Notes under the pieces: model-generated
Database searches by the model: none
What the model saw: the letters and a program-made list of their open reading frames with translations, nothing else
Told to the model about the DNA's origin: nothing
NCBI GenBank assembly: GCA_030611085.1
Contig: JAUWQI010000006.1
Coordinates: forward strand, 1 to 52,781
Length of the DNA: 52,781 nt
DNA from: Dehalococcoidia bacterium
GTDB taxonomy: Bacteria; Chloroflexota; Dehalococcoidia; GIF9; AB-539-J10
Direction: 5' to 3'
Position numbers and translations under genes: made by a program
Shown here: piece by piece, positions 5,470-49,123 of the stretch
Position numbering within the stretch: the stretch's first letter is position 1
Layout of the letters: each line of letters starts with the position of its first letter

Positions 5470-5550
5470 CTGAGCCCTCCGTATCTTGTCATTCTGAGCG
5501 AAGCGAAGAATCTCTCCACTCAGGACAGGCTCCGCGACCGAAGGATTTCT
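5470..5550 (+). repeat. Family A (TGTCA-tagged) palindromic repeat, nested form
   Basis: TGTCATTCTGAGCGAAGCGAAGAATCTC at 5487-5514 inside CTGAGCCCT...CTCAGGACAGGCTCCGCGA; same layout at 9742-9808. Confidence 0.85.
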
Positions 5551-5585
5551 AGCAAACTTTCTCTCACGGAGATCGTTTTTAAAAA

Positions 5586-5651
5586 TGTAGTTGCCCAATT
5601 TATTGGGCGATTCTGCCTGATGAATCAGGCAACTACAAGAATTTGAGGTGA
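5586..5651 (+). repeat. Family B GTAG-type REP doublet (REPIN-like)
   Basis: TGTAGTT-GCCCAATTTATTGGGC-gattct-GCCTGATGAATCAGGC-AACTACA plus a flank shared with the 11060 copy. Confidence 0.9.
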
Positions 5652-5706
5652 GGAGCTTCCAAAATGTCCCAATTTGAAGCTAAAACTAAAGTTAAACAGC
5701 CTTGCT

Positions 5707-5743
5707 TTCTCTCCCTTGATGGGAGAGGACTGAGGTGAGGGTG
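5707..5743 (+). repeat. Family C palindrome
   Basis: CTCTCCC-TTGAT-GGGAGAG-GACTGAGGTGAGGGTG. Confidence 0.8.
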
Positions 5744-5759
5744 TCTCTCACTTGCTAAG

Positions 5760-6513: not shown

Positions 6514-6753
6514 TTAATCTCTATATCCAAAGATAACCTTCGCCCTTTTCTGTCCTCCAAGTTCAATCTCATAGAATTTAGAGAGGTGGGCTATTGTCTC
6601 AGTTACAAGGTAAGTTGCCTTCAGGGCAACTGCCACTCCGACAAACTTCCCATATTCCTTCTCCATCCCTTCTATTTCCACTCCCTTGCTTCTAGCCTCG
6701 ATTCCGGAGGAGGTCATCATTGCCAGTTTTCTTTCCTCCGCCAGCTTTCGCAT
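6514..6753 (-). pseudogene. Possible PIN-domain toxin remnant
   Basis: KFVGVAVALKATYLVTE.IAHLSK resembles the PIN C-terminal KF..xA.A.kAdYLVTgD.HL motif, but the acidic catalytic residues and N-terminus are missing. Confidence 0.3.
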
Positions 6754-6755
6754 CT

Positions 6756-8582: not shown

Positions 8583-8584
8583 AT

Positions 8585-9691
8585 CTAGCCAAGGCATTTC
8601 CAGTAGTCTTTATGGTATTTTTTAATCTGCTCCACGACTTTCTTCGTGGCTTCAAATGAAGGGTCTGTTTGAAATCTTTGTGGAATGGGAAGTGGTTCCT
8701 CTACGCCGATTTTGAAATCAGCTAGTCCAGATATTAAAGCCAGCCAGGCATAAGGTAAAACTTCCTTGTTGTAGCCAGAACCAATTATGTCGATTTCTTT
8801 GCCCTGGCAGATTTGAACCATTTCTCTGACTTTCTCACCAATCATTCTGAACCCTTTTACAGATAGCCCCAAGTTGGTCAATCCGTCAGCGAAATGAGGG
8901 TCAGAGCCTCCATTTCTGATAATAATTTGAGGTTTGAATTCTCTGGCTACCGGTTGGACTATTTCCTCGAAAACCAATTGGTAAGAGTCATAGCCAGCAT
9001 AAATTGGCATGGGGAGATTGATAGTGTATCCTTTGCCAGCACCCTCTCCAATTTCATCAGCAAAACCCACTCCGGGATACAAAGTTCTTGGGTCCTGATG
9101 CAGATCGATAAATAGCACCTTTGGGTCGGAATAAAAATATTCACAGGTTCCATTTCCCTGGTGAGCATCAGTATCCAAAATTAAAATCCTTTCCACTCCG
9201 TACCTTTCCATTGAATATTTAGCGGCAAAGGCATTATCATTGTAAATGCAGAATCCTTCACCATAGCTTGGTTTAGCATGATGCATATTCCCACCAATAC
9301 ATATCACCTTTTCATATTCACCGGCCTGGATTAAGTCTACTGCCTTCTTTGCCTGGCCGATCATCAATCTTGCCGCTTCCTCCAATCTTCCTGGTTTGCC
9401 CCTTGGCATATTGTCTCCTGAATGGTATCGAGAAAAACTTCCGGGATAAGTTAAACCTAAATTGGCAGCCTTGAAATAACCCCTGGTGAAATCAATGTAA
9501 TCCTTATGGCAAATTAGCCCTAAATCCTCATCTATGGCTTGTTCTGCCTTCAGGATTCTATAGTTATCATCCTCAGGTAAGTTCTCTTCAAGAAACTTAG
9601 GGAATATTTCATATCTGTCGCCTCGAAAGGGATGACCAGGTCCGAAATCATATTCCTTTAGTTCTTCTCGATATAAAATTGCTATTGCCAT
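8585..9691 (-). CDS. Histone deacetylase / AcuC-like Zn-dependent deacylase
   Basis: GHPF, GGNMHHA, GFCIYND, DTDAHQGNG, GGSDPH, GSGY. Confidence 0.9.
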   Translation of the reverse strand: MAIAILYREELKEYDFGPGHPFRGDRYEIFPKFLEENLPEDDNYRILKAEQAIDEDLGLICHKDYIDFTRGYFKAANLGLTYPGSFSRYHSGDNMPRGKPGRLEEAARLMIGQAKKAVDLIQAGEYEKVICIGGNMHHAKPSYGEGFCIYNDNAFAAKYSMERYGVERILILDTDAHQGNGTCEYFYSDPKVLFIDLHQDPRTLYPGVGFADEIGEGAGKGYTINLPMPIYAGYDSYQLVFEEIVQPVAREFKPQIIIRNGGSDPHFADGLTNLGLSVKGFRMIGEKVREMVQICQGKEIDIIGSGYNKEVLPYAWLALISGLADFKIGVEEPLPIPQRFQTDPSFEATKKVVEQIKKYHKDYWKCLG

Positions 9692-9734
9692 TCCACCTCC
9701 TCTCCGAATAGGAGACTATTTTGCAAAACCTCTA

Positions 9735-9868
9735 TGTCATTCTGAGCCCTTCGCTTTTTGTCATTCTGCGCGTAGCGAAGAATCTCACCGCTCAGGACAG
9801 GCTCCGCGAAGAATCCAGGCCATTCGCTTGCCTCTTCGCTTCGCTCAGAGCTTCGGCTCAGGGTGACA
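9735..9868. repeat. Family A composite (nested) doublet
   Basis: TGTCATTCTGAG...[TGTCATTCTGCGCGTAGCGAAGAATCTC]...CTTCGGCTCAGGGTGACA. Confidence 0.88.
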
Positions 9869-9880
9869 AGATAAACAACC

Positions 9881-11059: not shown

Positions 11060-11123
11060 TCACCCTCCAATTTTTGTAGTTGTCTGATTCATCAGGCTTA
11101 GCCCAATAAATTGGGCAACTACA
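11060..11123 (-). repeat. Family B REP doublet (left flank of hicBA)
   Basis: Core 11075-11123 TGTAGTTGTCTGATTCATCAGGCTTAGCCCAATAAATTGGGCAACTACA. Confidence 0.9.
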
Positions 11124-11126
11124 TTT

Positions 11127-11328
11127 CTATACAGCTCTATACAGCTCTATACAGCCTCATTTTTTGTCTTCCCTTGCCCCTGCCAACTGCCAACTATTAA
11201 CCGCGTTTACAAGGTTCATAAAATTCATAAGGTTCAAAGGTTTGTAAAGTTTCACCCCCACCTTCAAACTTTCTAACCTGCAACCTTCTAACCTTCCAAC
11301 CTCTGTCTTTAACCTCCTAACTTGCCAG
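11127..11328. repeat. Patchwork of 10-, 7-, 9- and 8-bp degenerate tandem repeats
   Basis: (CTATACAGCT)x3; CTGCCAA CTGCCAA CTATTAA; GTTTACAAG GTTCATAAA ATTCATAAG; ACCTTCAA ACTTTCTA ACCTTCTA ACCTTCCA. Confidence 0.8.
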
Positions 11329-11351
11329 CCTTTTACCCTTTCTGCTATGCT
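11322..11351 (+). promoter_or_regulatory. Putative hicBA promoter
   Basis: TTGCCA-18 bp-TATGCT with an extended TG. Confidence 0.5.
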
Positions 11352-11367
11352 AAAGATGGAGGCTGTT

Positions 11368-11661
11368 ATGAAATTCACTGTTATTTTGGAGCCTGAGGAA
11401 ATTGGATACTCTATCCAGTGTCCTGCTCTGCCTGGCTGTGTTAGCCAGGGTGACAGCCGCGAGGAAGCCCTGTCTAATATTCGGGAGGCTATCGAGGGGA
11501 TTTTAGCTCTGAGAGAGAAGCACAATATGCCTTTCCCAAAAGAGACACCCGAACTTATGGCAAAGGAGATACGTTGCTGCCTTGAGGACCGCAGAGCAGA
11601 AGGACTTCCCCTCACAATTGAAACTGAGGAAGTAGAGGTGTCACCAAAGGTAGCAGTTTGA
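11368..11661 (+). CDS. hicB: HicB family antitoxin
   Basis: FTVILEPEE.GYS..CPALPGCVSQGDSREEAL.NIREAI; SD GGAGG. Confidence 0.92.
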   Translation: MKFTVILEPEEIGYSIQCPALPGCVSQGDSREEALSNIREAIEGILALREKHNMPFPKETPELMAKEIRCCLEDRRAEGLPLTIETEEVEVSPKVAV

Positions 11662-11882
11662 TGGCGAAGCTGCCTGTAGTAAAAGGAGATGCCGCCATCA
11701 AAGCTTTCGGGGAGGCTGGGTTTCACCTTGATCATTGGAGTGGAAGACATGCTATTCTTTATCATCCAGACAGGCGTCACCTTAGCATCCCAGGTGGAAA
11801 GAAAGAGCTTAAGGCGGGTACCTTGCGAACCTTGATCCGCAAAGCTGAACTTACCGTCGATGAATTTACCAAACTCCTCTAG
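11661..11882 (+). CDS. hicA: HicA family toxin (mRNA interferase)
   Basis: MAKLP...GF....SGRH..L....IP...EL.GTLR.LI..A.LTVDEF; start overlaps the hicB stop. Confidence 0.9.
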   Translation: MAKLPVVKGDAAIKAFGEAGFHLDHWSGRHAILYHPDRRHLSIPGGKKELKAGTLRTLIRKAELTVDEFTKLL

Positions 11883-11917
11883 TCCTCTCGTTGCTCTCAA
11901 CTTTCCCTCTTTACAAG

Positions 11918-12063
11918 ATTCTAATATCTAAGCTCTAAATACTAAGTTTCCTCTCTGTCATTGCGAGCATTTTGTAGGGGAGGATCTTGTACCCTCCCAA
12001 GGGATAAGGTGGGGATAAACCCCGCCACTACGGCTGCGAGGTGGAAGTTTTGCATTTTGATTG
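11918..12063. repeat. Stacked repeats: 7-mer arm, family A head, GTAG REP doublet (family D), TTTTGCATTTTGA arm
   Basis: ATTCTAATATCTAAGCTCTAAATACTAA; TGTCATTGCGAG at 11956; GTAGGGGAGGATCTTGTACCCTCCC...GGTGGGGATAAACCCCGCCACTAC at 11974-12031. Confidence 0.8.
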
Positions 12064-12083
12064 CTCGTTCAATTTACGCATTC

Positions 12084-12132
12084 TGTAGTTGCCTGATTCA
12101 TCAGGCTTAGCCCAATAAATTGGGCAACTACA
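12084..12132 (-). repeat. Family B REP doublet (right flank of hicBA)
   Basis: 48/49 identical to 11075-11123, same orientation. Confidence 0.92.
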
Positions 12133-12189
12133 TTTTTGGACAGTTTCTATTTCACAATTGCCTCAACCCATATTATAGTATAGCAGTAA

Positions 12190-14331: not shown

Positions 14332-14397
14332 TGTCATTCTGAGGGAGCATAACGACCGAAGAATCTCTTGAGACCCTTCGCTTCGCTCAGAGTGACA
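14332..14397. repeat. Family A inverted doublet
   Basis: TGTCATTCTGAG...GAAGAATCTC-TT-GAGACCCTTCGCTTCGCTCAGAGTGACA. Confidence 0.9.
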
Positions 14398-15184: not shown

Positions 15185-15251
15185 TGTCATTCCGAATGAA
15201 CTGAAGCGGAATGAAGAATCTCAGAGATTCTTCGCTGCGCTCAGAATGACA
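15185..15251. repeat. Family A inverted doublet
   Basis: TGTCATTCCGAA...GAAGAATCTC-A-GAGATTCTTCGCTGCGCTCAGAATGACA. Confidence 0.9.
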
Positions 15252-15285
15252 GAATGGCGCAGAATGAGAGAAGGTAATATTAGGA

Positions 15286-19403: not shown

Positions 19404-19590
19404 AAATTAAAGAGCAAAAGTAAAAATGCAAAGTGACAAAGCAAAAATTATGGTAAATCCTAAGCACGAAATCCTAAATTCTAAACAAACACAAAGCACT
19501 AATGACCAAAATTCAAAACAAAATAAGTTTTGGTATTTGAATTTGGAAATTCGAATTTGTTTAGGATTTAGAGCTTAGAATTTGGGATTT
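19404..19590. repeat. A-rich periodic arm plus 7-mer-periodic inverted repeat (family E)
   Basis: AAATCCTAAGCACGAAATCCTAAATTCTAAACAAA (19455) pairs imperfectly with TTTGTTTAGGATTTAGAGCTTAGAATTTGGGATTT (ends 19590). Confidence 0.8.
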
Positions 19591-21148
19591 GAATTTTTGG
19601 AGGTATGACATAGCTAGAAAAGGTTCCCAAATCTACCTCATTCTTGCCTTGCTGGCAGCAATACTGCTTTCACCATTGCCTCAATCAGCCATAGCCACAG
19701 GACTGCTCCTGCTAGCTTTATTCCTCTACTCAGGAAAGCTTCACTCTCACTGGGAAATCCCAATTATGCTGGGCTATTTCTTTGCCATACCACTTCTGTT
19801 TGAGCCAATCTTACATTTATTCTCACCCTTGGTAGCAATCTCCATCCTCCCTCTGATAGGCTCTAGCTTCAAGCAAAACGCTTTAATCCAAAGCATCGTT
19901 CCGCCAACAAAGCAAAGAGAGTTGACCTTCACTTCAAAATCGGTAATAGCAGCTACGGGAGCTATAATCCTTACCTCCCTTCTCCTGGGTAACTGGGTTT
20001 TGACAATAACCTGTGGCATAGCACTTCTCTTTATTGCTGGCATGTTGCTATACGTTCTAAGGAGCTTGCCTCTGTCCCCATTGGAGGTACAGCAAAAGGA
20101 AATCAGGCTCTTTGCTGGAAATACAAGCAAATTAGCAATCAAGCTCATGGGCAAGGCTAAATGTCCCTTCCATATCTCCGTCAACTCCAGCTACCCCTGG
20201 ATTTATCCAGCTAAGGACATCCTTCTGAATCTCACTAGCGAAGCAGAGCTAAATCTTACTATCACCCCCTCCTTATCAGGGCCTTCGGAACCTCACATCG
20301 AATTCCTTTCTACAGACCTCTGGGGACTAATCCAGATGAGGCAGGTGATTGAGCCGGTGAGGCTTTACGTTATCCCTCGTGCCAAATATGCTGAATGGCT
20401 GGCCAGGAAATATCTTGAAGAGACTGCGTCAGAGGCAGGAGCCCTCGCTGCCGCTTTCTCACCAGTCGCAGCAGGCACAACACCTAAGGGAGGAGTAGAG
20501 TATTGTGATAGCCGACCTTACCAACCAGGCGATAGATTAAAGGACATAGACTGGAAACACACTGCAAAGCTAAGAAAGCTCGTAATCAAAGAGTATGCGC
20601 AAGAGGCACGGCAGCTAGCCATAATCGCTGCTAACCTTGTGGCAGCAGATGCTGAAGAAGCGGATAAATTGGTGTATAACTTCATCACCGCGGCACTGAC
20701 TTTGGCTAAGGAGACTATCCCGACCGCTATAGCAGCTTATGATCAAGAGCAGGTACTAGCGGCAACTCCACTCCTGGATCCCAGGGGACTGGTGACAAAA
20801 GCACTGCAGTTGAGTCAAAAAGTAGTATTGCTCACACCTCTACAGCGATATATCCAGCCTCCTGACATCAGGCAGATTAAAATTTCGCTGAGACATCTGG
20901 AGAAGGCATCCACAGAACCGGCAAGAAAACTAAGAGAAATCCTCGATCTTGAGAGGAAGGCAATAGAAGAAGGAGTTAAGAAGCACCCAGCAAGAGAGGC
21001 ACTAAGTCGCGGTGCAGTTCATGTTTTGCCCCCAGCAACAATAACAGTGATTTCACCTTGGAGCTATGATTATGAAGCTTTATCGCTAACTCTAGAAGAG
21101 CTAAAAAGGCAAGGATATAATGCCACAGTAATAAAAGTAAACGGATGA
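19589..21148 (+). CDS. DUF58 domain membrane protein (start uncertain, possibly 19610)
   Basis: N-terminal TMs, D.WGL, R.YQPGDRLKDIDWKHTAK...L.IKEY. Confidence 0.88.
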   Translation: MNFWRYDIARKGSQIYLILALLAAILLSPLPQSAIATGLLLLALFLYSGKLHSHWEIPIMLGYFFAIPLLFEPILHLFSPLVAISILPLIGSSFKQNALIQSIVPPTKQRELTFTSKSVIAATGAIILTSLLLGNWVLTITCGIALLFIAGMLLYVLRSLPLSPLEVQQKEIRLFAGNTSKLAIKLMGKAKCPFHISVNSSYPWIYPAKDILLNLTSEAELNLTITPSLSGPSEPHIEFLSTDLWGLIQMRQVIEPVRLYVIPRAKYAEWLARKYLEETASEAGALAAAFSPVAAGTTPKGGVEYCDSRPYQPGDRLKDIDWKHTAKLRKLVIKEYAQEARQLAIIAANLVAADAEEADKLVYNFITAALTLAKETIPTAIAAYDQEQVLAATPLLDPRGLVTKALQLSQKVVLLTPLQRYIQPPDIRQIKISLRHLEKASTEPARKLREILDLERKAIEEGVKKHPAREALSRGAVHVLPPATITVISPWSYDYEALSLTLEELKRQGYNATVIKVNG

Positions 21149-21212: not shown

Positions 21213-21241
21213 TTGACAAATCCATGATTTTATGCTATATG
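21213..21241 (+). promoter_or_regulatory. Putative sigma70 promoter
   Basis: TTGACA-17 bp-TATATG with an extended TG. Confidence 0.45.
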
Positions 21242-21261
21242 TCAAACAATGTAGGGAAGCT

Positions 21262-25987: not shown

Positions 25988-26860
25988 TTAGGGTCTGCCC
26001 TCCTCGACATCTACCCAAAGGTGAGGTGGGGCTTTGAAATAGGGCTTTCCTTCTTTGTATAACACAAACTCCACCTTTTGTTTCTTGCCAATCTCCCGAG
26101 GCACAAAGCCAACCTCCCCCTCCCATTTCTCTTCATGGGACAGATCTACCTCTATCATATCTCTACCTTCATCTCCTATTCTCAGCTTCGCCTTTTCCCC
26201 ATCAATTCTCACCCCAATTCGATAGCTCACTTGCTCATGCTCATGATTCACTATTCCTAAAATAACTTTCCCTTCCTCCCCCACTTTTAGCGTCTCAGGG
26301 TAATCTTCAGCCTTGCCCTCAAGCCCTAAGATATAAAATTCGGTAAATTTCTCCCCCACCTTAGGCGTGGCAACAACATATCCCAGAGTTCCTATTACCC
26401 CTATTATGGCTAGAACCAAAACTACTGATAGCGCCTTATCCACTACTCCCTCTCCCTTGAAGGGAGAGGCCAGGTGAGGGTGAATTTCCACAGAAAATCT
26501 TTCCTCAGGGACAAGCCCCCTCCTGCGATGCCAGGCAACTCCAGACATAATCAAAATAAAGGACGAAAGTGAAATAAGAATGGGATAAAGCCTTATTCCC
26601 CAGGGAGTATAGTTCAAGATAAGTCCGATAAGTGGCACTACAGCAATGCTCAAACCAAAGCTTAAAGCTACTCTCTCCACCCCACCTAAACTCTCCCTCC
26701 TGGGAAATAAGGCGGCAATTAAAGTATATCCTGGGAAGAAGAGAATCAAAGGAAGCCCCAGAATAATACGAGCTATATTAGAGGGGAAAAAGATGATAAC
26801 CACAATGAGCAAGATAGTTAATATGGCGATAAGCCAGAGGTCGTTACTCCTAGTTTTCAT
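25988..26860 (-). CDS. DUF1616 membrane protein
   Basis: LFFPGY.L.AALFP, ERVALSFGLS, FTEFYILG..GKAEDYP, GIVNHE. Confidence 0.9.
   Translation of the reverse strand: MKTRSNDLWLIAILTILLIVVIIFFPSNIARIILGLPLILFFPGYTLIAALFPRRESLGGVERVALSFGLSIAVVPLIGLILNYTPWGIRLYPILISLSSFILIMSGVAWHRRRGLVPEERFSVEIHPHLASPFKGEGVVDKALSVVLVLAIIGVIGTLGYVVATPKVGEKFTEFYILGLEGKAEDYPETLKVGEEGKVILGIVNHEHEQVSYRIGVRIDGEKAKLRIGDEGRDMIEVDLSHEEKWEGEVGFVPREIGKKQKVEFVLYKEGKPYFKAPPHLWVDVEEGRP
26448..26482. repeat. Family C palindrome inside the DUF1616 CDS (in frame)
   Basis: CCCTCTCCCTTGAAGGGAGAGGCCAGGTGAGGGTG, read as HPHLASPFKGEG. Confidence 0.8.
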
Positions 26861-31338: not shown

Positions 31339-32627
31339 GGGCGAATCTGCCCACTACCAAAGATAATCCACTTGTAGCTGGTGAGCTCTTTAAGAGCCAT
31401 AGGCCCGCGAGCGTGGAATTTCTGGGTGCTTATGCCAAGCTCGGCGCCTAAGCCAAATTGCGCACCATCGGTAAATCTGGTGCTGGCATTGGCATAAACA
31501 CAGGCGGCATCCACTTCATTGAGAAACCTCATCGCTGCTGAATAATCTTCGGTAACAATAGCTTCAGAATGCCCCGAGCCATAGGTCTCAATATGTTCCA
31601 GAGCTTCATCTAAAGAATCAACCACCTTGATAGCTGCTTTTAGCGAAAGATATTCCTTTCCCCAATCTTCGTCTTCAGCCGGGACTAAGAGATTCTTCAC
31701 TTCGTTCAGAATGACATTGTTGGCTTTAAGGATAGCCAGTGCTCTCTCATCGCAATGCATTTCCACCCCAGCCTTTGCCCACTCTTTGGCAATGGAAGGT
31801 AGGTAATTGGGGGCAACCTGACTATGAACCAGAAGGCAATCCAGTGCATTGCACACAGTGGGACGCTGAACCTTGGCATTATAAGCGATGGCTACAGCTT
31901 TATTAAGGTCAGCAGATTTATCCACATAGGTGTGGCAAACACCTATCCCACCGGTAACCACTGGCATAGCAGCATTTTCCGAGACAAGCTTTATCAACCC
32001 AGCGCCACCACGGGGAATTATCAAGTCAATTATCCCTTTCATCCTAAGCATACGATTGACTAAAACCCGCTCTGTAGATTCAATAAATTGAATTGCCCCT
32101 TGAGGCACTCCAGCTCGATAACAGGCTTCTTGAGCTACTTTGGCTAATGCAGTATTGGAATTTACAGCCTCTCTGCCACCACGAAGGACGACGGCATTGC
32201 CTGATTTAAGGCACAAAGATGATATATCTATGGTAACATTGGGGCGACTCTCGTATATGGCTCCAATCACCCCTAAAGGGACTCGCTTCTTGCCTATCTG
32301 CAAACCATTGGGCAGAGTCTTCATCTCAATTATCTCGCCCACAGGGTCGGGCAAGACAGCTACTGTTCTTGTGTCCTGTGACATACTTTCCAGGCGGTCT
32401 TCTGATAACATAAGCCTATCCAGCATAGCTTCGTTCATCCCTGAAGCTTTAGCCTCGCCATAGTCAACTTTATTGGCAGCTAAAATTTCATCCTGTTTAG
32501 TAACAAGAGCATCAGCGACATTGAGCAAAGCCTTATTCTTGATTTCCGTAGAAAGGAAAGCCAGCTTCTTCGAAGCTGCCTTGGCAGCCTTTCCTTTTTC
32601 TTCCAGTTCTTTTATAGCTGATTTCAT
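31335..32627 (-). CDS. proA: Gamma-glutamyl phosphate reductase
   Basis: VPLGVIGAIYESRPNVT, VCNA, SGHSEAI, NASTRFTDG, HARGPM. Confidence 0.97.
   Translation of the reverse strand: MKSAIKELEEKGKAAKAASKKLAFLSTEIKNKALLNVADALVTKQDEILAANKVDYGEAKASGMNEAMLDRLMLSEDRLESMSQDTRTVAVLPDPVGEIIEMKTLPNGLQIGKKRVPLGVIGAIYESRPNVTIDISSLCLKSGNAVVLRGGREAVNSNTALAKVAQEACYRAGVPQGAIQFIESTERVLVNRMLRMKGIIDLIIPRGGAGLIKLVSENAAMPVVTGGIGVCHTYVDKSADLNKAVAIAYNAKVQRPTVCNALDCLLVHSQVAPNYLPSIAKEWAKAGVEMHCDERALAILKANNVILNEVKNLLVPAEDEDWGKEYLSLKAAIKVVDSLDEALEHIETYGSGHSEAIVTEDYSAAMRFLNEVDAACVYANASTRFTDGAQFGLGAELGISTQKFHARGPMALKELTSYKWIIFGSGQIRP
31689..31716 (-). repeat. Family A unit inside proA (in frame)
   Basis: Minus strand TGTCATTCTGAACGAAGTGAAGAATCTC, read as VILNEVKNL. 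Confidence 0.85.
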
Positions 32628-32643: not shown

Positions 32644-32696
32644 TGTGGTTGCCTGATTTATCAGGCATAATTCGCCCAATAAATTGGGCAACTACA
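32644..32696 (-). repeat. Family B REP doublet between the MTase and proA
   Basis: TGTGGTTGCCTGATTTATCAGGC-ataattc-GCCCAATAAATTGGGCAACTACA, abutting the MTase stop. Confidence 0.9.
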
Positions 32697-33668
32697 TTAC
32701 TTTTCAGCCTTAGATTGCCCTTCATATACACCCATATCTGCTCTGCCTTCTTTAACTATAAAATCGAATAAAGTGGGGATATTCTGGACATAGCTAACCC
32801 TTCTAATTCTTCTCTCCGCTAACTTAACATATTCCTCGTTTATGTCATAACCTACATAGTGTCGTTTTGTTTTTATCGCCGCTAAACCCGCTTGCCCACT
32901 CCCCATAAAGGGGTCTAAAACAACCTCTCCTTCATAAGTATAGAGCTGGATAAGCCTATATGGTAACTCTACAGGGAAAGGGGCAGGATGCCCGATGCTC
33001 CTTGCCTGCTCCGCCGGGAATGTCCATACACTTTTAGTAAATTCAAGGAATTCCTCTCTAGATATAGTGTTATGCTTATCTGGGTACTTCCTGTGGCTAA
33101 ATGTCCCTTTAGAAAAAACCAGGATATATTCGTGAATATCCCTCAGTGTAGGATTAGCTGCAGAGAGCCAACTTCCCCAAGCTGTGGAAGGGCTAGAACT
33201 TGAAGCCTTGTTCCAGATAATCTCTCCTCGCATCAGAAAACCTAATTCAAGCATATCTTCGATAATAAAAGTGTGAAGGGGGATATATGGTTTTCTCCCC
33301 AAGTTGGCAATATTTATGCAAGCTCTGCCCCCTGGCACAAGCACTCTGTAAACCTCTCGCCATACCCTTTTGAGGAATTCTTTGTATCCTTCCAGCGTCA
33401 AATCTTCATCATACTCTTTCCCCACGTTGTAAGGTGGAGAGGTAACCATCAAGTGAACGCTATTATCAGGCAATTCCGCCATTTTCTCACTTGATCTACA
33501 AAATATCTTATCTAGAAATTCAGGAGGAATGAGATTCTCTTCATATTTGACCTTTTCTTCTTTAGGTAAGCCTTCGTAAAGCTTGCTAGCATAGAATCGA
33601 GTGGAATCGTGATTTATCCGACCTGGCGAACCAAATGAACTCGTCTTAGTGCCCCTGCTCTTATTCAT
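32697..33668 (-). CDS. Beta-class amino (probably N4-cytosine) DNA methyltransferase
   Basis: TSPPY before HPAPFP and LDPFMGSG. Confidence 0.92.
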   Translation of the reverse strand: MNKSRGTKTSSFGSPGRINHDSTRFYASKLYEGLPKEEKVKYEENLIPPEFLDKIFCRSSEKMAELPDNSVHLMVTSPPYNVGKEYDEDLTLEGYKEFLKRVWREVYRVLVPGGRACINIANLGRKPYIPLHTFIIEDMLELGFLMRGEIIWNKASSSSPSTAWGSWLSAANPTLRDIHEYILVFSKGTFSHRKYPDKHNTISREEFLEFTKSVWTFPAEQARSIGHPAPFPVELPYRLIQLYTYEGEVVLDPFMGSGQAGLAAIKTKRHYVGYDINEEYVKLAERRIRRVSYVQNIPTLFDFIVKEGRADMGVYEGQSKAEK

Positions 33669-34297
33669 TCCTCCCTCCAGTGATCAACCCATCTCTCGTA
33701 TGGATCATAGTCTATTTCCATTCTTCGCCAGTATATCCCAATGGCTTTGGAATCCTTATCTGCAACTAAAGCTTCTAAGGCCTCTTTGCTAATTTCCACG
33801 CCTCGGGGATTTGTTCCTGGCTTGGGGAGCTTGATATATCTTTCTTTGCCAATCTTTGTAAACACTTTCCTTTGAATCTCTAAAGGTAAGTAATAAAATC
33901 CACCCTCAGCATCCCAATTAATCTGTACAAGTAAAACATCACAGCAAGGATAGTAACTCTCACAAAATTCCCTTGCTTTTTGAGTGTCAACCGTCCATGT
34001 TAGCTTAACTCCACTAAGTCCTTTGCCTGTAATTGTTTTGATGGAAATAGATTGTCCGAACAACTTCAGGTCAACCTCGGGTTCAGTGATGGGAATTCCT
34101 GTCTCTACATTCTCCTCTCCAAACTTATAAATAAGCAAAGCTATTATTATGTTTTCCCTAAGCGAACCCACTTGCATTCCAATGTTTCCTGCTCGTGAGC
34201 TTTCTAGCTCAGCAATGCGAAATAAGCGAGGTAATTTCTTCTGTATTCTAGCTTTGAGCTCTTTATCCTTAAAGACTTCTATGAGATGGCTATTCAC
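33665..34297 (-). CDS. Type II restriction endonuclease, ThaI-like
   Basis: KLPRLF.IAELESSRAG.IGM.VGS.RE, EPEVD...ISIKT (PD-D/ExK variant); ATGA overlap with the MTase. Confidence 0.75.
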   Translation of the reverse strand: MNSHLIEVFKDKELKARIQKKLPRLFRIAELESSRAGNIGMQVGSLRENIIIALLIYKFGEENVETGIPITEPEVDLKLFGQSISIKTITGKGLSGVKLTWTVDTQKAREFCESYYPCCDVLLVQINWDAEGGFYYLPLEIQRKVFTKIGKERYIKLPKPGTNPRGVEISKEALEALVADKDSKAIGIYWRRMEIDYDPYERWVDHWREE

Positions 34298-37332: not shown

Positions 37333-37366
37333 TTCCTTCCTCCTTCCATTGCCATATTGCAAAAAG

Positions 37367-38926: not shown

Positions 38927-41900
38927 ATGGAGCTTTCCGGTTTACTTTCCTTGCTTAGAAAAGTCCCCTTTTACAAACAACTGGTGCGGCAAATATCCAC
39001 AGCCAAAGGTGAACACAGTATATCAGTGCTCGATGCCGCCAGGCCTTACTTTATAGCTGCTCTCCATAAAGAGCTTAGTTTACCTTTGATTGTGGTAACC
39101 ACCCAACCTGAGAATGCCAGGACGCTCTATGAGCAACTTCAAGCATGGTGTTCTCCTTCATCCAATTTGCACCGTTTCCCGGAAGTCGGTTCCCCCCCTT
39201 CCACCAACACCATGTCGGAAAGATTACAGGTGCTAGCTTCTTTAGCCCTTTATAAGCCCTCCGCCCCTTGTCATTCTGAGGGAAGCGAAGAATCTAGAGG
39301 CCCTATGGTGGGGATGAACCCTGCTACTACGTTTGGGGTGACAGCTAAACGACCTCCTTTGATAGTAACCTCAGCCTTAGCAGCTATAATTAAAACCGCT
39401 CCTCAAGGAGATTTTGCCTCTGCTTGCCATACTTTAAATCAAGGCATGCATATTGACCCCATAGAACTACTACATAAATGGCAAAGTATCGGCTATGAAA
39501 TGGAGGATGCTGTTGAGGTGCCTGGGCAAGTAAGCAAACGAGGTGGCATTATTGATGTTTTTCCTCCTTGTAGCTCATCACCAGCTCGAATAGAGTTTTT
39601 TGGCAACCAGATTGAGAGCATAAGGCTTTTCGACCCAGAGAGCCAACGCTCCACCACGCCAATACATTCAATAACCATCACTCCAGCTAAAGAGCTTCTC
39701 AACAATGGAAGTATCCTTGACTACCTGGGTGATAATGCTCTTCTTATTCTTGATGACCCAGAGGAAATCAAAGTTGCCATCCAGAGGCTTTATGCCCAAA
39801 GCCAGGAGCTGGAGCAAGGCGAATCACCTCAGTGCTCTCCTCCTCCTTATCTTGCCTGGGAGAAATTAGAGCCCAAAATAAGGGTAAGGCATCGTCTGAT
39901 GTTGAAATCCACCTCGGAGACCCTTCGCTTCGCCCAGGGTGACAAAGGAGACACTCAGAGTGACATAATTGAGAGCAATGGAAGGTTGCTTCGCACCGCT
40001 CGCAATGACATTGCTTTGCCTTTCTCCCCTTGTCAAAGTTATGGAGGCAAATTGGAACGATTCCTCAAGGCAGCCAGGCAAATGCTCCAACAAAGACAAT
40101 CCGTGCTCGTAGTTAGCCATCAAGCAAATCGCCTGGCTGAGCTTCTTCAGGAAGAAGGTATTTATCCCGCATTACAAATGGAACAAGCTCCCCCTCCTGG
40201 TTCAGTCACTGTGCTTCGAGGTTCACTGGCTGAAGGTTGGGAGTTACCAAATATTTTAAATTTAATCACCGATGCTGAGCTCTTTGGCTTTGTGAAGCAA
40301 GCACGCCCAGGTAGAAAAACGCCAGTGCGAACTAGCTTGCTCCTTCCTCAGTCAATGCCAGGAGATTATGTAGTCCATGTTGACCACGGCATTGCCAGAT
40401 TTAATGGTTTAACACGAATGTCCACCGATGGAATTGAGCAGGAATACCTTGTTTTAGAGTACGCTGGCAGCGACAGGCTTTATGTACCCACAGAGCAAAT
40501 AGAGCGCGTCAGTCGCTATATTGGAAGTGGTGACCAGGCACCAATTTTGAGTCGACTGGGAACGCAGGAATGGCAAAGAACAAAGGAACGGGTTAGACAA
40601 TCAGTGGTTGATATGGCTCAGGACTTGCTTGAGCTCTACGCTGCCAGGGAGGTAGCTCCAGGCTTTGCCTTCTCTCCTGACACATTATGGCAGCAGGAAT
40701 TGGAAGCATCATTCCCTTATATGGAAACGCCAGACCAGCTTGAAGCAATTACGGCCGTCAAAGAGGATATGGGAAAAAATAAGCCCATGGACCGGCTCAT
40801 CTGTGGAGATGTGGGCTATGGCAAAACTGAGGTGGCTTTGCGCGCTGCCTTCAAAGCAGTGATGGACAACAAGCAAGTAGCTATACTGGCACCCACCACT
40901 GTGCTGGCTCAGCAACATTTCACTACCTTCACCGAGAGATTGCAAGCTTTTCCTCTAAGAGTGGAAATACTGAGCCGCTTTTGTTCCTCAGAAAAAGAAG
41001 AGAAAATTCGTGAAAGCTTAGCTAATGGCACCACAGATATATGCATCGGCACTCATCGCTTATTGCAAAAAGACATCGTATTCAAAGACCTGGGACTGGT
41101 GGTAATTGATGAAGAGCAACAATTCGGCGTGGCGCAAAAGGAGAGGCTTAAACAAGTGAGAAAAGAGGTAGATACTATCGCCCTGAGCGCCACCCCCATC
41201 CCACGCACCCTCCATATGTCCTTAACCGGAATCAGGGATATGAGCATCATGGAAACACCACCCGAAGAACGCTTATCCATTAAGACCTCTGTTGGTGTTT
41301 ATGATGATACCCTGGTTAGGCAGGCGGTATTGCGTGAGTTGGAGAGAAATGGTCAGGTCTTTTTTGTTCATAATCGAGTTCAGAGCATCGTTTTAGCCGC
41401 CAGCAAGTTACAGGCTCTGGTGCCCGAAGCCAGAATCGCCATTGCTCATGGGCAAATGCCCGAGGAAGAACTAGAAAAAGTGATGGCAGATTTTATCGCT
41501 GGCACTTATGATGTCTTGGTCACCACCACTATTATCCAGTTGGGCTTGGATATGCCCAATGTCAACACGCTAATTATTGACCAGGCTGACAAATTTGGTT
41601 TAGCTCAGCTTTATCAGTTGAGAGGCAGAATAGGCCGTGGCATCAACCAGGCTTATGCTTATTTCCTATATGATAAAGGCAAGCAGCTAACTGCCCAAGC
41701 CCATAAAAGGCTTAAGACTATCTTCGAGGCTACAGAGTTGGGTGCTGGGTTTGGTATTGCTATGAAAGATTTGGAGATTCGTGGCGCGGGGAATCTTCTG
41801 GGTGTTAAGCAGAGTGGGCATATAGTTGCTATAGGTTTTGACCTTTATTGCCAGATGATGGCTGAGGCAGTAGAGGAGGTCAAAAAAGTCAGGAGTCAAA

Positions 41901-42469
41901 GGAGCCGGGAGTCAGGGGAGACTCTGGACTCTCGCCTATCGACTATCTGGACTAATGATGGGAGAGGAACAAGTGAGGGTGAAATTAGGAAGAGCGAAGC
42001 GAAGCAATCTCCCACCATATCCCTACCATTAACCGCCCATATATCGGAGGAGTATGTGCCAAATTTGAACACTCGCTTATCTCTTTACCGCAGATTGGCA
42101 GCCATAGAGCGCATTGAGGAAGTAACGGATGTAACGCAGGAGATCAAGGATAGATTTGGCGCCTTGCCAGAGCCGGTGAAAAATCTCCTTTATATAGTAA
42201 AAACCAGGATTTTAGCCAGCCAGGCTAACCTGAGCTCCATCTCCACTCATGGGAAGCAAATTGTAATAAAGCCGAAACTCCCTCACTTTGCCTCTCCCTT
42301 GAAGGGAGAGGAACAAGGTGAGGGTGAACTACAATCTCTAAGCAGGCATTATGATGGAGCAGTTAAAATAGGAGCTACACAAATAAAATTAGACACCAGT
42401 CGCCCAGGAATTGAATGGACGAAGGTGCTGGAAGAAATATTACTGAGTATAACCTGCCCTTCAACGTAA
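38927..42469 (+). CDS. mfd: Transcription-repair coupling factor
   Basis: UvrB-like N-terminus, VHVDHG RID, GDVGYGKT, DEEQ, SATPIPRT, QLRGRIGR, DLEIRGAGNLLG. Confidence 0.97.
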   Translation: MELSGLLSLLRKVPFYKQLVRQISTAKGEHSISVLDAARPYFIAALHKELSLPLIVVTTQPENARTLYEQLQAWCSPSSNLHRFPEVGSPPSTNTMSERLQVLASLALYKPSAPCHSEGSEESRGPMVGMNPATTFGVTAKRPPLIVTSALAAIIKTAPQGDFASACHTLNQGMHIDPIELLHKWQSIGYEMEDAVEVPGQVSKRGGIIDVFPPCSSSPARIEFFGNQIESIRLFDPESQRSTTPIHSITITPAKELLNNGSILDYLGDNALLILDDPEEIKVAIQRLYAQSQELEQGESPQCSPPPYLAWEKLEPKIRVRHRLMLKSTSETLRFAQGDKGDTQSDIIESNGRLLRTARNDIALPFSPCQSYGGKLERFLKAARQMLQQRQSVLVVSHQANRLAELLQEEGIYPALQMEQAPPPGSVTVLRGSLAEGWELPNILNLITDAELFGFVKQARPGRKTPVRTSLLLPQSMPGDYVVHVDHGIARFNGLTRMSTDGIEQEYLVLEYAGSDRLYVPTEQIERVSRYIGSGDQAPILSRLGTQEWQRTKERVRQSVVDMAQDLLELYAAREVAPGFAFSPDTLWQQELEASFPYMETPDQLEAITAVKEDMGKNKPMDRLICGDVGYGKTEVALRAAFKAVMDNKQVAILAPTTVLAQQHFTTFTERLQAFPLRVEILSRFCSSEKEEKIRESLANGTTDICIGTHRLLQKDIVFKDLGLVVIDEEQQFGVAQKERLKQVRKEVDTIALSATPIPRTLHMSLTGIRDMSIMETPPEERLSIKTSVGVYDDTLVRQAVLRELERNGQVFFVHNRVQSIVLAASKLQALVPEARIAIAHGQMPEEELEKVMADFIAGTYDVLVTTTIIQLGLDMPNVNTLIIDQADKFGLAQLYQLRGRIGRGINQAYAYFLYDKGKQLTAQAHKRLKTIFEATELGAGFGIAMKDLEIRGAGNLLGVKQSGHIVAIGFDLYCQMMAEAVEEVKKVRSQRSRESGETLDSRLSTIWTNDGRGTSEGEIRKSEAKQSPTISLPLTAHISEEYVPNLNTRLSLYRRLAAIERIEEVTDVTQEIKDRFGALPEPVKNLLYIVKTRILASQANLSSISTHGKQIVIKPKLPHFASPLKGEEQGEGELQSLSRHYDGAVKIGATQIKLDTSRPGIEWTKVLEEILLSITCPST
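39269..39343 (+). repeat. Family A/D composite, 75 bp, in frame in mfd
   Basis: TGTCATTCTGAGGGAAGCGAAGAATCT...GGTGGGGATGAACCCTGCTACTAC...GGGTGACA; 25 codons. Confidence 0.88.
39917..40010 (-). repeat. Family A units in frame in mfd
   Basis: GAGACCCTTCGCTTCGCCCAGGGTGACA (26/28 to 14370-14397), then CTCAGAGTGACA and TTGCTTCGCACCGCTCGCAATGACA. Confidence 0.88.
41887..42011. repeat. Stacked AGTC/GACT periodic IR, half family C and partial family A, in frame in mfd
   Basis: AGTCAGGAGTC..GAGTCAGG / GACTCTGGACT..GACT; TGATGGGAGAGGAACAAGTGAGGGTG; GAGCGAAGCGAAGCAATCTC. Confidence 0.75.
42280..42324. repeat. Full family C hairpin in frame in mfd
   Basis: CCCTCACTTTG-CCTCTCCCTT-G-AAGGGAGAGG-AA-CAAGGTGAGGG. 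Confidence 0.85.
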
Positions 42470-46070: not shown

Positions 46071-46340
46071 AAATACCTCCTTTTTCTTCTATATTTGCAT
46101 TTTCTCGCTACAAACTGCCTCGAATTGTAGCACAACAAAAATCCAAACCGAAATAATAACATGCTGCCCAAGATAATGCAACTTCGCGTGCTGGCTGACC
46201 ACATCGCCACCAAAGAGGTCGCTTAGCAATCTATTTGTCATTACTAGTTAATAAACAAACTCCTGCCAAACTCTTCCTTGTCTAAACGCCTTTTCTTTAC
46301 TAGAATACACCAATATAACCAGTAATTTTATAGATAGATT

Positions 46341-48110
46341 GTGCTAAAAAGACATAAGAGTGCCATTAATAGCAAACTAGTTTCACCGCTGAGGTATTTA
46401 CGCGCCCATAGATTCACCTCTGGCATCATTCTTAGCATTATTGTTGGGCTCGGTGGTGGGCTCGGTGCTGTTATCTTCAGGTGGCTCATCAAGACATTTC
46501 ACCAGCTCTTTTTTACCGGAATGAGTGATTCTTTAACCCTTTTAGGGCATTACTCCGTCATTTTAGCGCCTGTAGTGGGTGGACTCATCGTTGGTTGCAT
46601 CATTTACTTCACTAAAACTGGAGAGACGAAAGGCCATGGCGTCCCTGAGGTAATGGAAGCAGTATGGCGAGAAGGAGGACGCATCCGTCCCAGAGTAGCA
46701 GCAATTAAGGTGCTAACTTCATCAATATGCCTTGGCAGTGGAGGTTCTGCAGGAAGAGAAGGACCAATCGTCCAGATTGGCTCCAGCATCGGCTCAACTG
46801 TAGCACAATGGTTTCGCTTGCCAGAGGATTGGGTAAAAACTCTGGTTGCCTGTGGAACAGCAGCAGGCATTTCAGCCACATTTAATGCCCCTATAGGCGG
46901 TATATTTTTTGCTTTGGAAGTTATTTTAGGCCGGGTTGTAAACCCACGCCTGGGCTTTGTTGTCCTGAGTTCAGTGGTAGCCGACCTTATCGCTCACCTT
47001 TTCCTGGGCGATTTCCGAACCTTCAATATGCCGGTGGAATATACTCTAAATAGCTACAGCGAATTACCCTTATATATCTTATTAGGCGTATTTTGTGCTC
47101 TTGTCGCTGCTCTTTTCATTCGTTCACTGTACAAAATGGAAGACGGTTTTAATGCCTTAAAACTTCCCGAATACTTAAAACCAGCTTTGGGTGGCATTGC
47201 CGTTGGGCTCATCGGTTTCTACAATCCTTATCTTTTTGGAGTTGGCTATGATGGAATAGACCAGGTTCTATTGGGTAATATTGGCCTTCTCTCCTTGATA
47301 GCATTGCTATTTCTGAAAATATTAGCTACTTCATTCACTCTAGGAAGCGGGGGTAGTGGCGGCATTTTTGCCCCCAGTTTATTTATGGGAGCTATGTTTG
47401 GTGGGCTCTTCGGAGAAATAGCTCACGGTTTCCTGCCCGGCGTCGTCGCCCCTGCAGGTGCTTACGCACTGGTAGGTATGGCGGCAGTCTTTGCTGGAGC
47501 AACACAGGCACCAATAACATCTTTCATCATCCTTTTTGAGATGACCCAGGATTACGCTATCATCCTGCCCTTACTGCTGGCAGTAGTAACTAGCACTTTG
47601 CTTTCTCGCCGACTTAGCCGCGAAACCATATACACCCTTAAATTAGCACGGCGCGGCATAAGTACACAACGCCCCGAAGAGGCTGCTTTCTTGAGAAGTA
47701 TTACTGTCGGTGAGACGATGACACGCAATTTCCCCAGCGTTTCACCCCAAATGAGCGTTCCTAAGCTAATAGACAAGCTGAACAAAACTGGCCATCATGG
47801 ACTCCCTGTGGTGGATGAAAATGGTCACCTTTATGGCATGGTTACCTTGACCGATGTTGAATCCAGAATAACAGGAGACATTAAGAAGCTTACTGTAGCT
47901 GATATTGCTACTAAAAGACTGACTACAGCCTATCCCGACCAGCTTTTGAGTGAACTGGTTGAGCATTTGGGCATGGGAACCAGTGAAATTCCACGAATTC
48001 CTGTCGTCAGCAGGCGAGACCCTACCAAGCTCCTGGGAGTGCTGCGCCGCCAGGATATTGTTAAGGGTTACGCCAGAGCAGTGTCAGGAATACACGGAAA
48101 CGAAGTATGA
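46341..48110 (+). CDS. ClC chloride channel/antiporter with CBS domains
   Basis: GHGVPE, GREGP, FNAP, GGIFAP, C-terminal CBS pair. Confidence 0.93.
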
Positions 48111-49123
48111 AAATCTTAGGCATTGAAACCTCCTGTGATGAAACTGCCGCCGCAGTGGTTGCCGATGGCAGCAAAATTATCTCCAATATCATAGCTTCAC
48201 AGATAGACATTCATGCTCGCTACGGCGGCATAGTGCCAGAAATTGCCTCAAGACAGCACCTGCTCACCATTATCCCTGTGGTGCAAAAGGCAATGTCTGA
48301 AGCCAATGCCGGTTGGCAAGATATAGATGGCATTGCCATAACTTACGGCCCAGGCTTGGCAGGCTCACTGCTCGTGGGGGTTAATGTAGCCAAGGCAATC
48401 GCCCTGGCTACAGGATTGCCTATTACCGGGGTTAACCATCTCGAAGGGCATATCTATGCCAACTGGTTATCTTCTCCATCCAATTGTAGTTGCCCAATTC
48501 ATTGGGCGAATGGCGCGGGCAAGGTGAGATTCCCCTGCCTCTGCCTTATCATTTCCGGTGGGCACAGCGACTTGATAGTAATGAAAGGACATGGGCAATT
48601 TGAGAAGCTAGGACGAACTCGTGATGATGCCGCCGGAGAGGCATTTGACAAAGCGGCTCGAATTTTGGGCTTAGGCTATCCCGGAGGCCCAGCCGTGGAA
48701 CAAGCAGCTACCACCGGAACCCCTTGCATTCCTCTTCCCCGAGCCTGGCTCAAAGGAAGCCACGATTTCAGCTTCAGCGGCTTAAAGACAGCCCTCTGGC
48801 ATCTCGCCCAAAAGGAACAAATTTCGGCAACCGACGCTGCCGCAAGCTTCCAGCTAGCAGTAGTAGATGTCCTGGTTGGTAAAACAATCGAGGCAGCAAA
48901 GGAATTACAGGTAAAACAAATTTTGCTCAGTGGTGGTGTAGCATCAAATAAGTTTTTAACAGAGCGTTTCCTGAACTCCTCGCCTATCCCCGTCCTCATT
49001 CCCCCTCCCGACTTATGCACTGATAATGCCGCTATGGTCGCCGCTTGTGGCTACTACCATTTTCAAGCTGGTAACGCAAGCAGCTATGACTTAGATGTAG
49101 TTCCCAGCCTCAGCCTGGGCTAG
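48107..49123 (+). CDS. tsaD: tRNA N6-threonylcarbamoyladenosine synthesis protein TsaD
   Basis: [48 protein letters not shown]. Confidence 0.97.
48485..48508 (+). repeat. Half family B REP in frame in tsaD
   Basis: TGTAGTTGCCCAATTCATTGGGCG (23/24 to 5586-5609), read as CSCPIHWA. Confidence 0.85.

Follow-up and report, generated by a model that had tools for sequence, protein, structure and literature searches.

Inverted TGTC-tagged hairpins bracket a small GIY-YIG gene, a candidate mobiliser of palindromic repeats in a Dehalococcoidia genome and beyond

We analysed a 52,781-nucleotide stretch of a Dehalococcoidia bacterium genome (contig JAUWQI010000006.1 of assembly GCA_030611085.1; hereafter the window), which forms contig C27 of a draft genome, G000, that comprises 30 contigs and 1,160,811 bases, with a G+C content of ~45% and a marker-gene completeness of 83%. 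The window reflects the colonisation of the whole genome by at least five families of small structured repeats, designated A to E. The most valuable outcome of the analysis is that, across phyla, a small GIY-YIG gene is bracketed by inverted copies of family A, a hairpin with a TGTC tag. From these sequence comparisons, we consider it slightly more probable than not that the GIY-YIG protein mobilises the A repeats, with a probability that we put at roughly 0.55. Repeats were counted with nhmmer models iterated from window seeds, plus a head motif for A, and G000 was found to hold 332 A elements, 69 B1 and 68 B2 arms, 39 C, 26 D, and 57 E elements. An earlier note on this DNA had listed nine copies of A, five of B, five of C, and two of D, and every one of them was located at its coordinates; the C copy at 1868 precedes position 5470, where the repeat region had been said to start.

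The A unit is laid out as a TGTC tag, a 5-nt stem arm, GA, a variable inner mini-hairpin, GA, the complementary arm, and a CTC tail. The head motif TGTCAYYSYGAG occurred 250 times in G000 (146+104), compared with 0+2 for the reversed control, and TGTCATTCTGAG is the most frequent 12-mer of the genome, with 139 copies. Tagged hairpins with a T head numbered 296, against 52 in the reversed control. For the stem analysis, we collected 145 units fitting TGTC-N5-GA-N7-GA-N5, with pairing not required; 98 of these had a paired inner stem. The outer stems fell into the classes ATTCT/AGAAT (40 units), ATTGC/GCAAT (19, one base out of register), and ACCCT/AGGGT (13), and the inner hairpin varied among GCGAAGC (29), GCAAAGC (15), and ACGAAGT (9). 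Fully paired units numbered 59, whereas 1000 partner shuffles gave a mean of 31.9 and a maximum of 39. Units lying no more than 40 nt apart were mostly arranged with their heads outward (42 of 46 pairs; one pair was heads-inward and three were tandem), and the two arms had different stems in 33 of the 42 heads-outward pairs. Two such doublets in the window were predicted to be stable (z -3.7 and -3.8).

The abundance of A is highly uneven. Among 121 genomes of the order, the head count ranged from 0 to 344, and from 5 to 180 inside one genus, with controls at 0-9. In G000, 224 of the 332 elements are intergenic and 98 lie wholly within called open reading frames (ORFs); genes were called with a home-made ORF scorer, which gave 1153 calls (86% coding). 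An exact match to the 28-base A unit of the window was found in at least 123 stretches, whose record titles name at least 13 phylum-level groups, ranging from Nitrospirota and Acidobacteriota to Cyanobacteria, Bacteroidota, Bacillota, and Patescibacteria.

Family A represents a new variant within the CGTC/TGTC-tagged superfamily, and its load of intragenic copies is unusually heavy. This superfamily and the GTAG-tagged one were defined among repetitive extragenic palindromic (REP) sequences by Di Nocera et al. in 2013 (PMC3733652), with the remark that CGTC is often TGTC. The available portion of that survey describes CGTC repeats in five phyla, with stems of 8-9 bp that start with A-T pairs, loops of 4-5 nt, intragenic copies, and no associated transposase. 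Family A shares with them the unpaired (C/T)GTC tag, the A-T stem start (A-T, T-A in A), a 3-nt tail, frequent dimers, common heterodimers, intragenic copies (notably in DNA-repair genes), and a patchy copy number. It likewise shows no association with Y1 transposase genes. Relatives of G000, as well as Sinorhizobium meliloti and Rhizobium, carry the canonical CGTC form with an 8-9-bp stem and a 4-5-nt loop, whereas the A units of G000 depart from the published stem and loop dimensions, having a 5-bp outer stem, GA/GA, and a 2-bp inner stem with a 3-nt loop, or loops of up to ~40 nt. Their tail, among the 98 units, was CTC in 44 and CTA in 17, in contrast to the CCA of the published consensus (PMC3733652, as far as its available text goes), and the spread of A over records of at least 13 phylum-level names compares with the five phyla reported there. 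Finally, no dedicated enzyme is given for the superfamily in that text, while here the repeats bracket a GIY-YIG gene, a class that is not among the transposases surveyed in 2013.

The small GIY-YIG gene is present in one copy in G000 (C17:10435-10719; PF01541, E 9e-14) and sits between two inverted A units with their tags outward. The GIY-YIG signature residues Y8, Y19, G21, R29, H33, and E66 were invariant in 18 members of its clade, and among solved structures the closest are those of two UPF0213 proteins, BH0048 (E 1.6e-7) and EF2693, with no function recorded for either. Across the 121 genomes, PF01541 hits beyond uvrC (two or more in total) were detected in 59 of the 88 genomes with at least 10 A heads, compared with 4 of the 33 with fewer (Fisher p 4e-8, Spearman 0.52, the genomes being kin and not independent). 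We then compared 57 small GIY-YIG ORFs from 54 loci of relatives together with the G000 locus. Sixteen were bracketed heads-outward by A-type hairpins and 10 partially so; nine had tRNA-like ends, five were flanked by another repeat, F, and 17 had no such flanks. In the maximum-likelihood tree, a single clade of 27 proteins of 95-110 aa (support 99/97) holds all 16 bracketed proteins, along with nine partial cases and two without flanks. The other clades had other surroundings, with F at 5 of 5 loci, tRNA at 9 of 10, and no flanks at 13 of 13 in a fourth clade. By comparison, such a bracket surrounded 8 of 1120 genes of G000, the most A-dense genome per megabase of the set, and none of 32 four-helix-bundle loci. 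The suggestion of the earlier note that a GIY-YIG protein might partner one of the repeat families is thus strongly supported for A.

Members of the second of these clades are flanked by the cosmopolitan repeat F, with motifs like CTTCGACA.GCTCAGG and GTCGAACCA (L158, L162, L164, L170, and L183 in relatives; L217 in Prolixibacteraceae), which suggests that the gene-plus-ends logic holds for other repeat families too. Proteins of the third clade (79-90 aa) are encoded beside tRNA-like 3' ends duplicated on both sides, at loci of relatives that include L159, L167, L175, L184, L185, L190, L197, and L198; tandem copies were present in L175 and L184.

The bracket extends beyond the order. We searched five genomes containing the exact 28-base A unit with the clade profile and detected relatives of the GIY-YIG protein in four. 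Those in Nitrospirales and Prolixibacteraceae had an A-type bracket, and that of an acidobacterium was bracketed by units consisting of CGTC, an 8-bp stem, and GAAA; the arrangement in Calothrix was less regular. A metagenome scan returned at least 592 relatives. Among the best 80 of these loci, 41 were bracketed on both sides, 26 partially, and 13 not at all; when only the 73 loci with at least 150 nt on both sides were counted, the corresponding figures were 40, 25, and 8. The two arms of a metagenome locus were usually of one stem class. A relative was also present in 32 PLSDB records, including Rhizobium (9), Sphingobium (6), Shinella (4), Sinorhizobium (4), and Neisseria (2); a phage collection contained no relative. 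Four of these 32 records were examined, from lineages that the available text of PMC3733652 names as CGTC hosts. S. meliloti and Rhizobium sp. CIAT894 have an annotated GIY-YIG gene with a CGTC REP on either side, heads outward; each REP comprises a 9-bp stem, a 5-nt loop, and a CC tail. In Neisseria gonorrhoeae, an unannotated GIY-YIG ORF lies within an array of CGTCATTCCCGC...GCGGGAATC units, and in Planktothrix the gene lies between TGTCATTCTGAG-type doublets. The S. meliloti record (L345) additionally contains a second GIY-YIG 3' end with a REP directly upstream of the annotated gene, so the elements stand in tandem there, at two places in the record.

The Neisseria repeat dRS3 was equated with CGTC-1 in the survey of 2013 (PMC3733652, available text), and its CGTCATTCCCGC...GCGGGAATC units resemble those beside the GIY-YIG genes in Acidobacteriota, G081 and G083, and N. 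gonorrhoeae. Our literature searches recovered no printed link between dRS3 and GIY-YIG, and the N. gonorrhoeae ORF is unannotated in the record examined. Neither did we find a paper linking GIY-YIG with REP, miniature inverted-repeat transposable elements, or palindromic repeats, in searches that covered the running text of papers; the REP/RAYT literature examined does not mention GIY-YIG, and nothing relevant was found on COG2827, UPF0213, or YhbQ. Strings of the A sequence matched only unrelated primers, the figures and supplements of PMC3733652, which possibly contain consensus sequences, being outside the search. As far as these searches show, the GIY-YIG/A bracket across phyla is not in print.

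Families B and D, in turn, are known REPIN systems, composed of classical GTAG REP doublets. Each B doublet combines two unlike hairpins with GTAG tags at the outer ends, and D is built likewise with other stems; in both, an unpaired 5' GTAG tag precedes the hairpin, as in REPs and REPINs. The inverted doublets occur in many, mostly intergenic copies (125 of 137 B arms in G000), and B-type heads were present in 54 of the 121 genomes of the order, at high numbers in few. The proposal of the earlier note that these two families are REPINs of the kind mobilised by RAYTs (REP-associated tyrosine transposases) was borne out in relatives. A RAYT gene in G033 (132 aa; G033:C2) and its homologue in G007 (G007:C18) have B doublets on both sides, and a RAYT gene in G081 (155 aa; G081:C26) is bracketed by D doublets. 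The G081 protein scored above the cut-off of the NCBIfam model REP_Tyr_transpos (103 bits vs 80), which was also the best match of the G033 protein, at 68 bits and below the cut-off. B and D would thus be made and moved in trans by RAYT enzymes of the Y1 HUH type, acting on single-stranded hairpins. The cognate genes were seen in sister genera and not in the 83%-complete G000 assembly, where Y1_Tnp gave no match and tblastn with the RAYTs of relatives likewise found none. Compared with published REP-RAYT systems (REPtrons; PMC6006769, in its available part), B and D are alike in the GTAG tag, the hairpin, the inverted two-arm doublets, and the mostly intergenic location, and they differ in that no RAYT was recovered in G000, a B arm lies in frame in tsaD, and half of a D doublet lies in mfd. 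Family A resembles REPtrons in having an enzyme gene nested among its own repeats, although the enzyme superfamily differs.

A Y1/RAYT-like remnant was also noted in G000 at C7:3893-4321, amid small genes; it matches residues 79-207 of a 267-aa G017 protein at 91% identity and is without the N-terminal HUH part.

We propose for A a minimal selfish element, in which a gene for a GIY-YIG nuclease of ~95 aa would be bracketed by two A units with their tags outward. The A singlets and heads-outward doublets would then be gene-less derivatives of it. The nuclease would recognise the tagged hairpin or a cruciform and introduce a nick or a cut, after which the ends would be spread by repair or copying, whether or not the gene went with them. 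Several observations weigh against this proposal. A bracket of this kind is equally expected of a homing gene that targets A doublets, cleavage and mobility being our reading of the sequences. A-rich genomes such as G005 (181 copies, 98% complete) and G012 (141 copies) gave no small GIY-YIG hit, and G123 has seven PF01541 hits yet only six A heads. Inverted arms and a gene-bearing relative were found for A; we identified neither a target-site duplication nor a defined insertion junction. A lone A unit is not predicted to exceed its shuffles in stability (-1.9 kcal/mol, z +0.65), and the structural case therefore rests on covariation. Moreover, the 54 loci of relatives came from the top of a hit list and are not a random sample, and the home-made G000 gene calls were checked against homologues only for mfd, tsaD, and proA. 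For the wider picture of mobile families, since no RAYT was found in G000, B and D may be inactive there.

The main rival explanation holds that the GIY-YIG gene is a free-standing homing endonuclease gene, with the A doublets as its landing site and the repeats spread by another route. GIY-YIG homing endonucleases are an established class, the gene always lies between two tails of what otherwise occurs as a gene-less doublet, and its copies are few (0-6) beside hundreds of A units. We still regard this explanation as unlikely. The orthologous site in G010 is empty and has no A doublet, which indicates, for the one site examined, that the gene and its A ends arrived together. In addition, the protein clades match the repeat types (A, F, tRNA-adjacent), as expected for cognate ends, and no other candidate mobiliser correlates with A. 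The protein has the GIY-YIG catalytic domain in common with homing endonucleases and with the small UPF0213 proteins (PDB 1zg2, 1ywl); it differs in being only ~95 aa long, in having no separate DNA-binding domain, intron, or intein, and in being encoded within a bracket of tagged hairpins. The anatomy of A, an unpaired 4-nt tag followed by a hairpin and arranged in inverted doublets, is that of REPs, and A might accordingly be moved by a Y1 HUH enzyme, either a RAYT or an IS200-like protein, with the GIY-YIG bracket being incidental. Y1 genes occur in 28 of the 121 genomes, and G000 itself retains the truncated remnant mentioned above. Against this, the median A count was 34 in genomes with a Y1 gene and 27 in those without (p 0.52), the A-rich and nearly complete genomes G005, G010, and G045 gave no Y1 hit, the three REPtron RAYTs carry B or D doublets and not A, and the 2013 survey, in its available text, reports no CGTC repeats flanking tyrosine transposase genes (PMC3733652). 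An involvement of Y1 enzymes in A therefore appears improbable.

We consider it just as doubtful that the repeats are host-serving sequences, such as terminators, mRNA stabilisers, or protein-binding sites, which were selected and spread only by descent and recombination. It is true that most copies of A and most B arms are intergenic, that compensatory change preserves the hairpins, and that roles of REPs in termination and mRNA stability are discussed (PMC3733652, available text). Nevertheless, the copy number of A varies from 0 to 344 among close relatives, ~100 copies lie within ORFs in either orientation, congeners differ in what fills the same sites, and the identical 28-mer appears in records of at least 13 phylum-level names. 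Assembly or binning errors, such as chimeric contigs or collapsed repeats, might be invoked for a 30-contig draft in which several contig ends carry common repeats. We attach a negligible probability to them, as the same elements are found at syntenic places in an independent congeneric genome and also in complete genomes of named species.

More tentatively, and at odds somewhat short of even, we extend the proposal of a GIY-YIG mobiliser from family A to the whole CGTC/TGTC superfamily, for which a ~95-aa GIY-YIG gene between (T/C)GTC hairpins may be the missing autonomous parent throughout bacteria.

The intragenic load concerns A in particular. In G000, 100 elements, nearly all from A, are internal to a set of 63 ORFs with lengths of at least 250 aa. 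The A heads are read in five of six frames; four are generally open, the fifth only for the ATTGC variant (without TGA), and the sixth never. Because four of the six frames are open, copies landing in tolerant surface linkers would persist as in-frame peptide insertions. Comparison with homologues indicated that the mfd, tsaD, and proA ORFs stay open across in-frame insertions (Table 1). The B1 arm in tsaD encodes a 14-residue insertion relative to the solved TsaD 6nak. In proA, homologues lack the extra residues at the A unit, and the loop of the congener G001 is 27 nt longer. In mfd, site 1 is empty in seven of the legible full-length orthologues and holds other repeat-derived fills in three; in G001, 83 extra nt are nested within the A loop at site 1, and an additional periodic-plus-A insertion lies just upstream of site 2. 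Different families would end up at the same few gene sites through linker tolerance as well. The claim that unrelated families target the same gene sites is accordingly weak, and the sharing may instead reflect which linkers tolerate insertion.

Rickettsia palindromic elements (RPE) are small palindromic elements that are inserted in frame into many protein-coding genes and leave them unbroken. The repeats described here behave alike, while differing in host lineage and sequence, in their density (63 ORFs of at least 250 aa in 1.16 Mb), and in belonging to several unrelated families. RPE-4 and RPE-6 were equated with CGTC-4 and CGTC-1, respectively, in the available text of PMC3733652.

Turnover of the sites was assessed against the congener G001, whose syntenic blocks share 75-89% DNA identity with G000. 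Both genomes have the B arm in tsaD, the C copy in the DUF1616 ORF, and the A unit in proA. Elsewhere, the sites vary among relatives, as the fills in mfd of G001, in the other orthologues, and at the GIY-YIG site demonstrate; the latter also bears out the idea that junctions rich in repeats gain and lose small genes. Where G000 has the GIY-YIG gene, the orthologous intergenic site of G010 is empty (110 nt, no repeat). In G007 and G015 the site is occupied by a four-helix-bundle gene with AT-rich periodic arms on both sides, and in G001 by a truncated version of this gene plus a C element. One site with several tenants supports the notion of hot spots of changing small genes. Similarly, G001 lacks, at the syntenic site, the hicAB cassette that two B doublets enclose in G000, and only G001 has a DUF4258/MqsA-like pair, which is located together with A units between proA and the RNase PH gene.

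The pile-ups of several families at 5470-5743, at 11060-12132, and at the four mfd sites are real. The families also insert into one another, as had been proposed: A occupies the same position in several E arms, one C lies in an E centre, the G001 mfd insertion is nested in an A loop, and B and D abut the ends of E. To what extent co-localisation exceeds chance depends on the null model. We considered 905 intergenic regions and re-dealt the occupied ones among the 699 with at least 20 non-repeat bases. Of 212 occupied regions, 171 held one family, 26 two, 13 three, one four, and one five. Regions with at least two families numbered 41, compared with 28.0 expected under a uniform null and 42.1 under a length-weighted null, and regions with at least three numbered 15, compared with 1.6 and 6.7, respectively (maximum 16 in 2000 weighted trials). 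The weighted null errs on the conservative side, since degenerate copies that escaped detection add to the non-repeat length. The pairs D-E, B-C, B-D, and A-D were enriched under both nulls; A-B, A-C, and A-E showed no enrichment under the weighted one. Hence, the postulated hot spots hold for multi-family pile-ups and for some pairs, but not as a general rule. Genes with repeats on both sides numbered 60 of 1153 in G000 and were mostly housekeeping genes, with no A 'REPtron' besides the GIY-YIG locus. Single-linkage clustering of repeat intervals was tried for defining the families and proved unusable: 480 of 537 intervals fell into one component because the families abut.

Family C is a CCTCTCCC/GGGAGAGG hairpin, which in full copies is enclosed by an outer CCCTCAC/GTGAGGG stem, and family E is an AT-rich periodic palindrome of 60-220 nt. 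Tandem Repeats Finder (TRF; score of at least 30) detected arrays at 11126-11155, 11180-11195, 11211-11242, 11260-11302, and 19417-19445, and none at 11918 or 41887, where weakly periodic palindromes are discernible by eye only. Consequently, of the periodic arms in the earlier note, those at 11126-11302 and 19417-19445 were recovered and the other two were not. Two further candidate mobilisers in that note were not supported. For the DUF559/Vsr-like protein, no DUF559 or PDDEXK_3 gene was found in G000. Four-helix-bundle genes had been suggested as parents of E by the one orthologous site described above and were rejected, as the E model matched on both sides of 0 of 32 and on one side of 3 of 32. 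Their flanks showed inverted complementarity (z of at least 5) in 12 of 30 cases, and arms other than E are involved at these genes. The sole four-helix-bundle gene of G000, a member of the 23S rRNA intervening-sequence protein family (C11:38237-38668, L307), has 6-7-mer arrays on both sides (GACTAA... and AATCTG...); relatives contain up to six copies of such genes.

Table 1. Repeat elements and the genes they touch in the window (positions 1 to 52,781)
Feature	Positions	Strand	Remarks
Family C, intergenic	1868..1895	+	
Family A, longer composite copy	5469..5537	+	complete TGTC-tagged unit 5487-5514
Family B doublet	5585..5637	.	arm B1 5585-5609 (+), B2 5614-5637 (-); fold z -6.3
Family C hairpin (CCTCTCCC/GGGAGAGG) with GTGAGGG arm	5707..5743	+	
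Family A cluster	9734..9869	.	head 9735, unit 9759-9786 (+), reverse units 9832-9869; A cluster at syntenic place in G001
Family B doublet, left of hicAB cassette	11075..11124	.	
7- to 10-mer periodic arrays, imperfect palindrome upstream of hicB	11126..11328	+	
hicB and hicA, between two B doublets	11347..11882	+	hicB 11347-11661, hicA 11658-11882
AT-rich, weakly periodic arm with A head remnant	11902..11969	+	head only, at 11956-11969
Family D doublet, two different hairpins	11973..12035	.	GTAG heads outward
Family B doublet, right of hicAB cassette	12084..12133	.	
Family A doublet, heads outward	14332..14397	.	long-loop and short-loop arm; fold z -3.7
Family A doublet, heads outward	15185..15252	.	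fold z -3.8
Family E palindrome, ~190 nt	19409..19599	.	stretch 19405-19600 folds with z -4.3
Family C inside DUF1616 ORF (25988-26860, - strand)	26448..26483	+	
Family A unit in frame in proA (31335-32627)	31689..31716	-	shared with G001
Family B doublet beside restriction-modification pair	32645..32697	.	gene content there differs in G001
mfd ORF, 1180 aa	38927..42469	+	in-frame repeat insertions at four linker sites
mfd site 1	39269..39343	+	A unit 39269-39296, half of a D doublet 39307-39332, reverse A head 39332-39343
mfd site 2	39917..40010	-	three reverse A heads/units: 39917-39945, 39954-39965, 39999-40010
mfd site 3	41887..42012	+	GAGTC/GACTC periodic palindrome, partial C 41956-41985, A 3' half only 41992-42012
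mfd site 4	42280..42327	.	two-tier C hairpin in G000; A unit at same place in G001
Single B1 arm in frame in tsaD	48485..48508	+	

Pfam assignments of the 44 ORFs of the window revealed ordinary chromosomal genes, including an obg-like GTPase gene, dxs, proA, proB, mfd, tsaD, acs, a ClC channel gene, a restriction-modification pair, and hicAB. No transposase, RAYT, or GIY-YIG gene was found among them, in agreement with the claim that the window encodes no mobiliser, and the window gave no Rfam match at the gathering threshold and no tRNA in a tRNA search.

Further observations concern individual neighbourhoods. At 32697-34297, a ThaI-like restriction endonuclease gene and an N6/N4 DNA methylase gene lie beside the B doublet, and the counterpart in G001 holds a different, methylase-like gene of 505 aa. 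The histone-deacetylase-family gene at 8585-9691 corresponds in G001 to a syntenic place with only a cluster of three A heads; a Sir2-like gene is instead present in G001, beyond the M20 peptidase gene. Two neighbouring paralogues with AMP-binding_C_2 (35905-38800) have 230 nt at 71% identity in common, and the content of G001 differs there. A tandem repeat of 57 nt (2.1 copies, 93% matches) at 21790-21909 lies within an ORF that has no Pfam match (21232-21978). Several contig ends of G000 (C25 at both ends, C24, and C21; the starts of C5, C12, C15, and C22) share common repeats of 30-140 nt, which are probably collapsed insertion sequences or rRNA flanks; the assembly may therefore under-represent mobile genes.

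REP-like repeats rank among the most abundant non-coding features in bacterial genomes, and the CGTC/TGTC superfamily, one of the two large ones, has been without a known enzyme since its definition in 2013. The clade-matched bracket, which reaches from G000 to Sinorhizobium, Rhizobium, Neisseria, and cyanobacteria, provides a concrete and testable pair of protein and substrate. If the proposed parentage is correct, its class would include dRS3-like and RPE-like repeats and would constitute a novel type of mobile element in prokaryotes, driven by a GIY-YIG protein and not by a transposase. Thousands of in-frame peptide insertions in bacterial proteins would be due to such elements, and the stereotyped peptides in metagenome-predicted proteins (CHSE.SEES, VIASEAKQS, RFAQNDK) would be explained. 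Annotators and structure predictors would be cautioned that such stretches are repeat insertions, and the insertions would naturally mark permissive linkers in Mfd, TsaD, and other conserved proteins.

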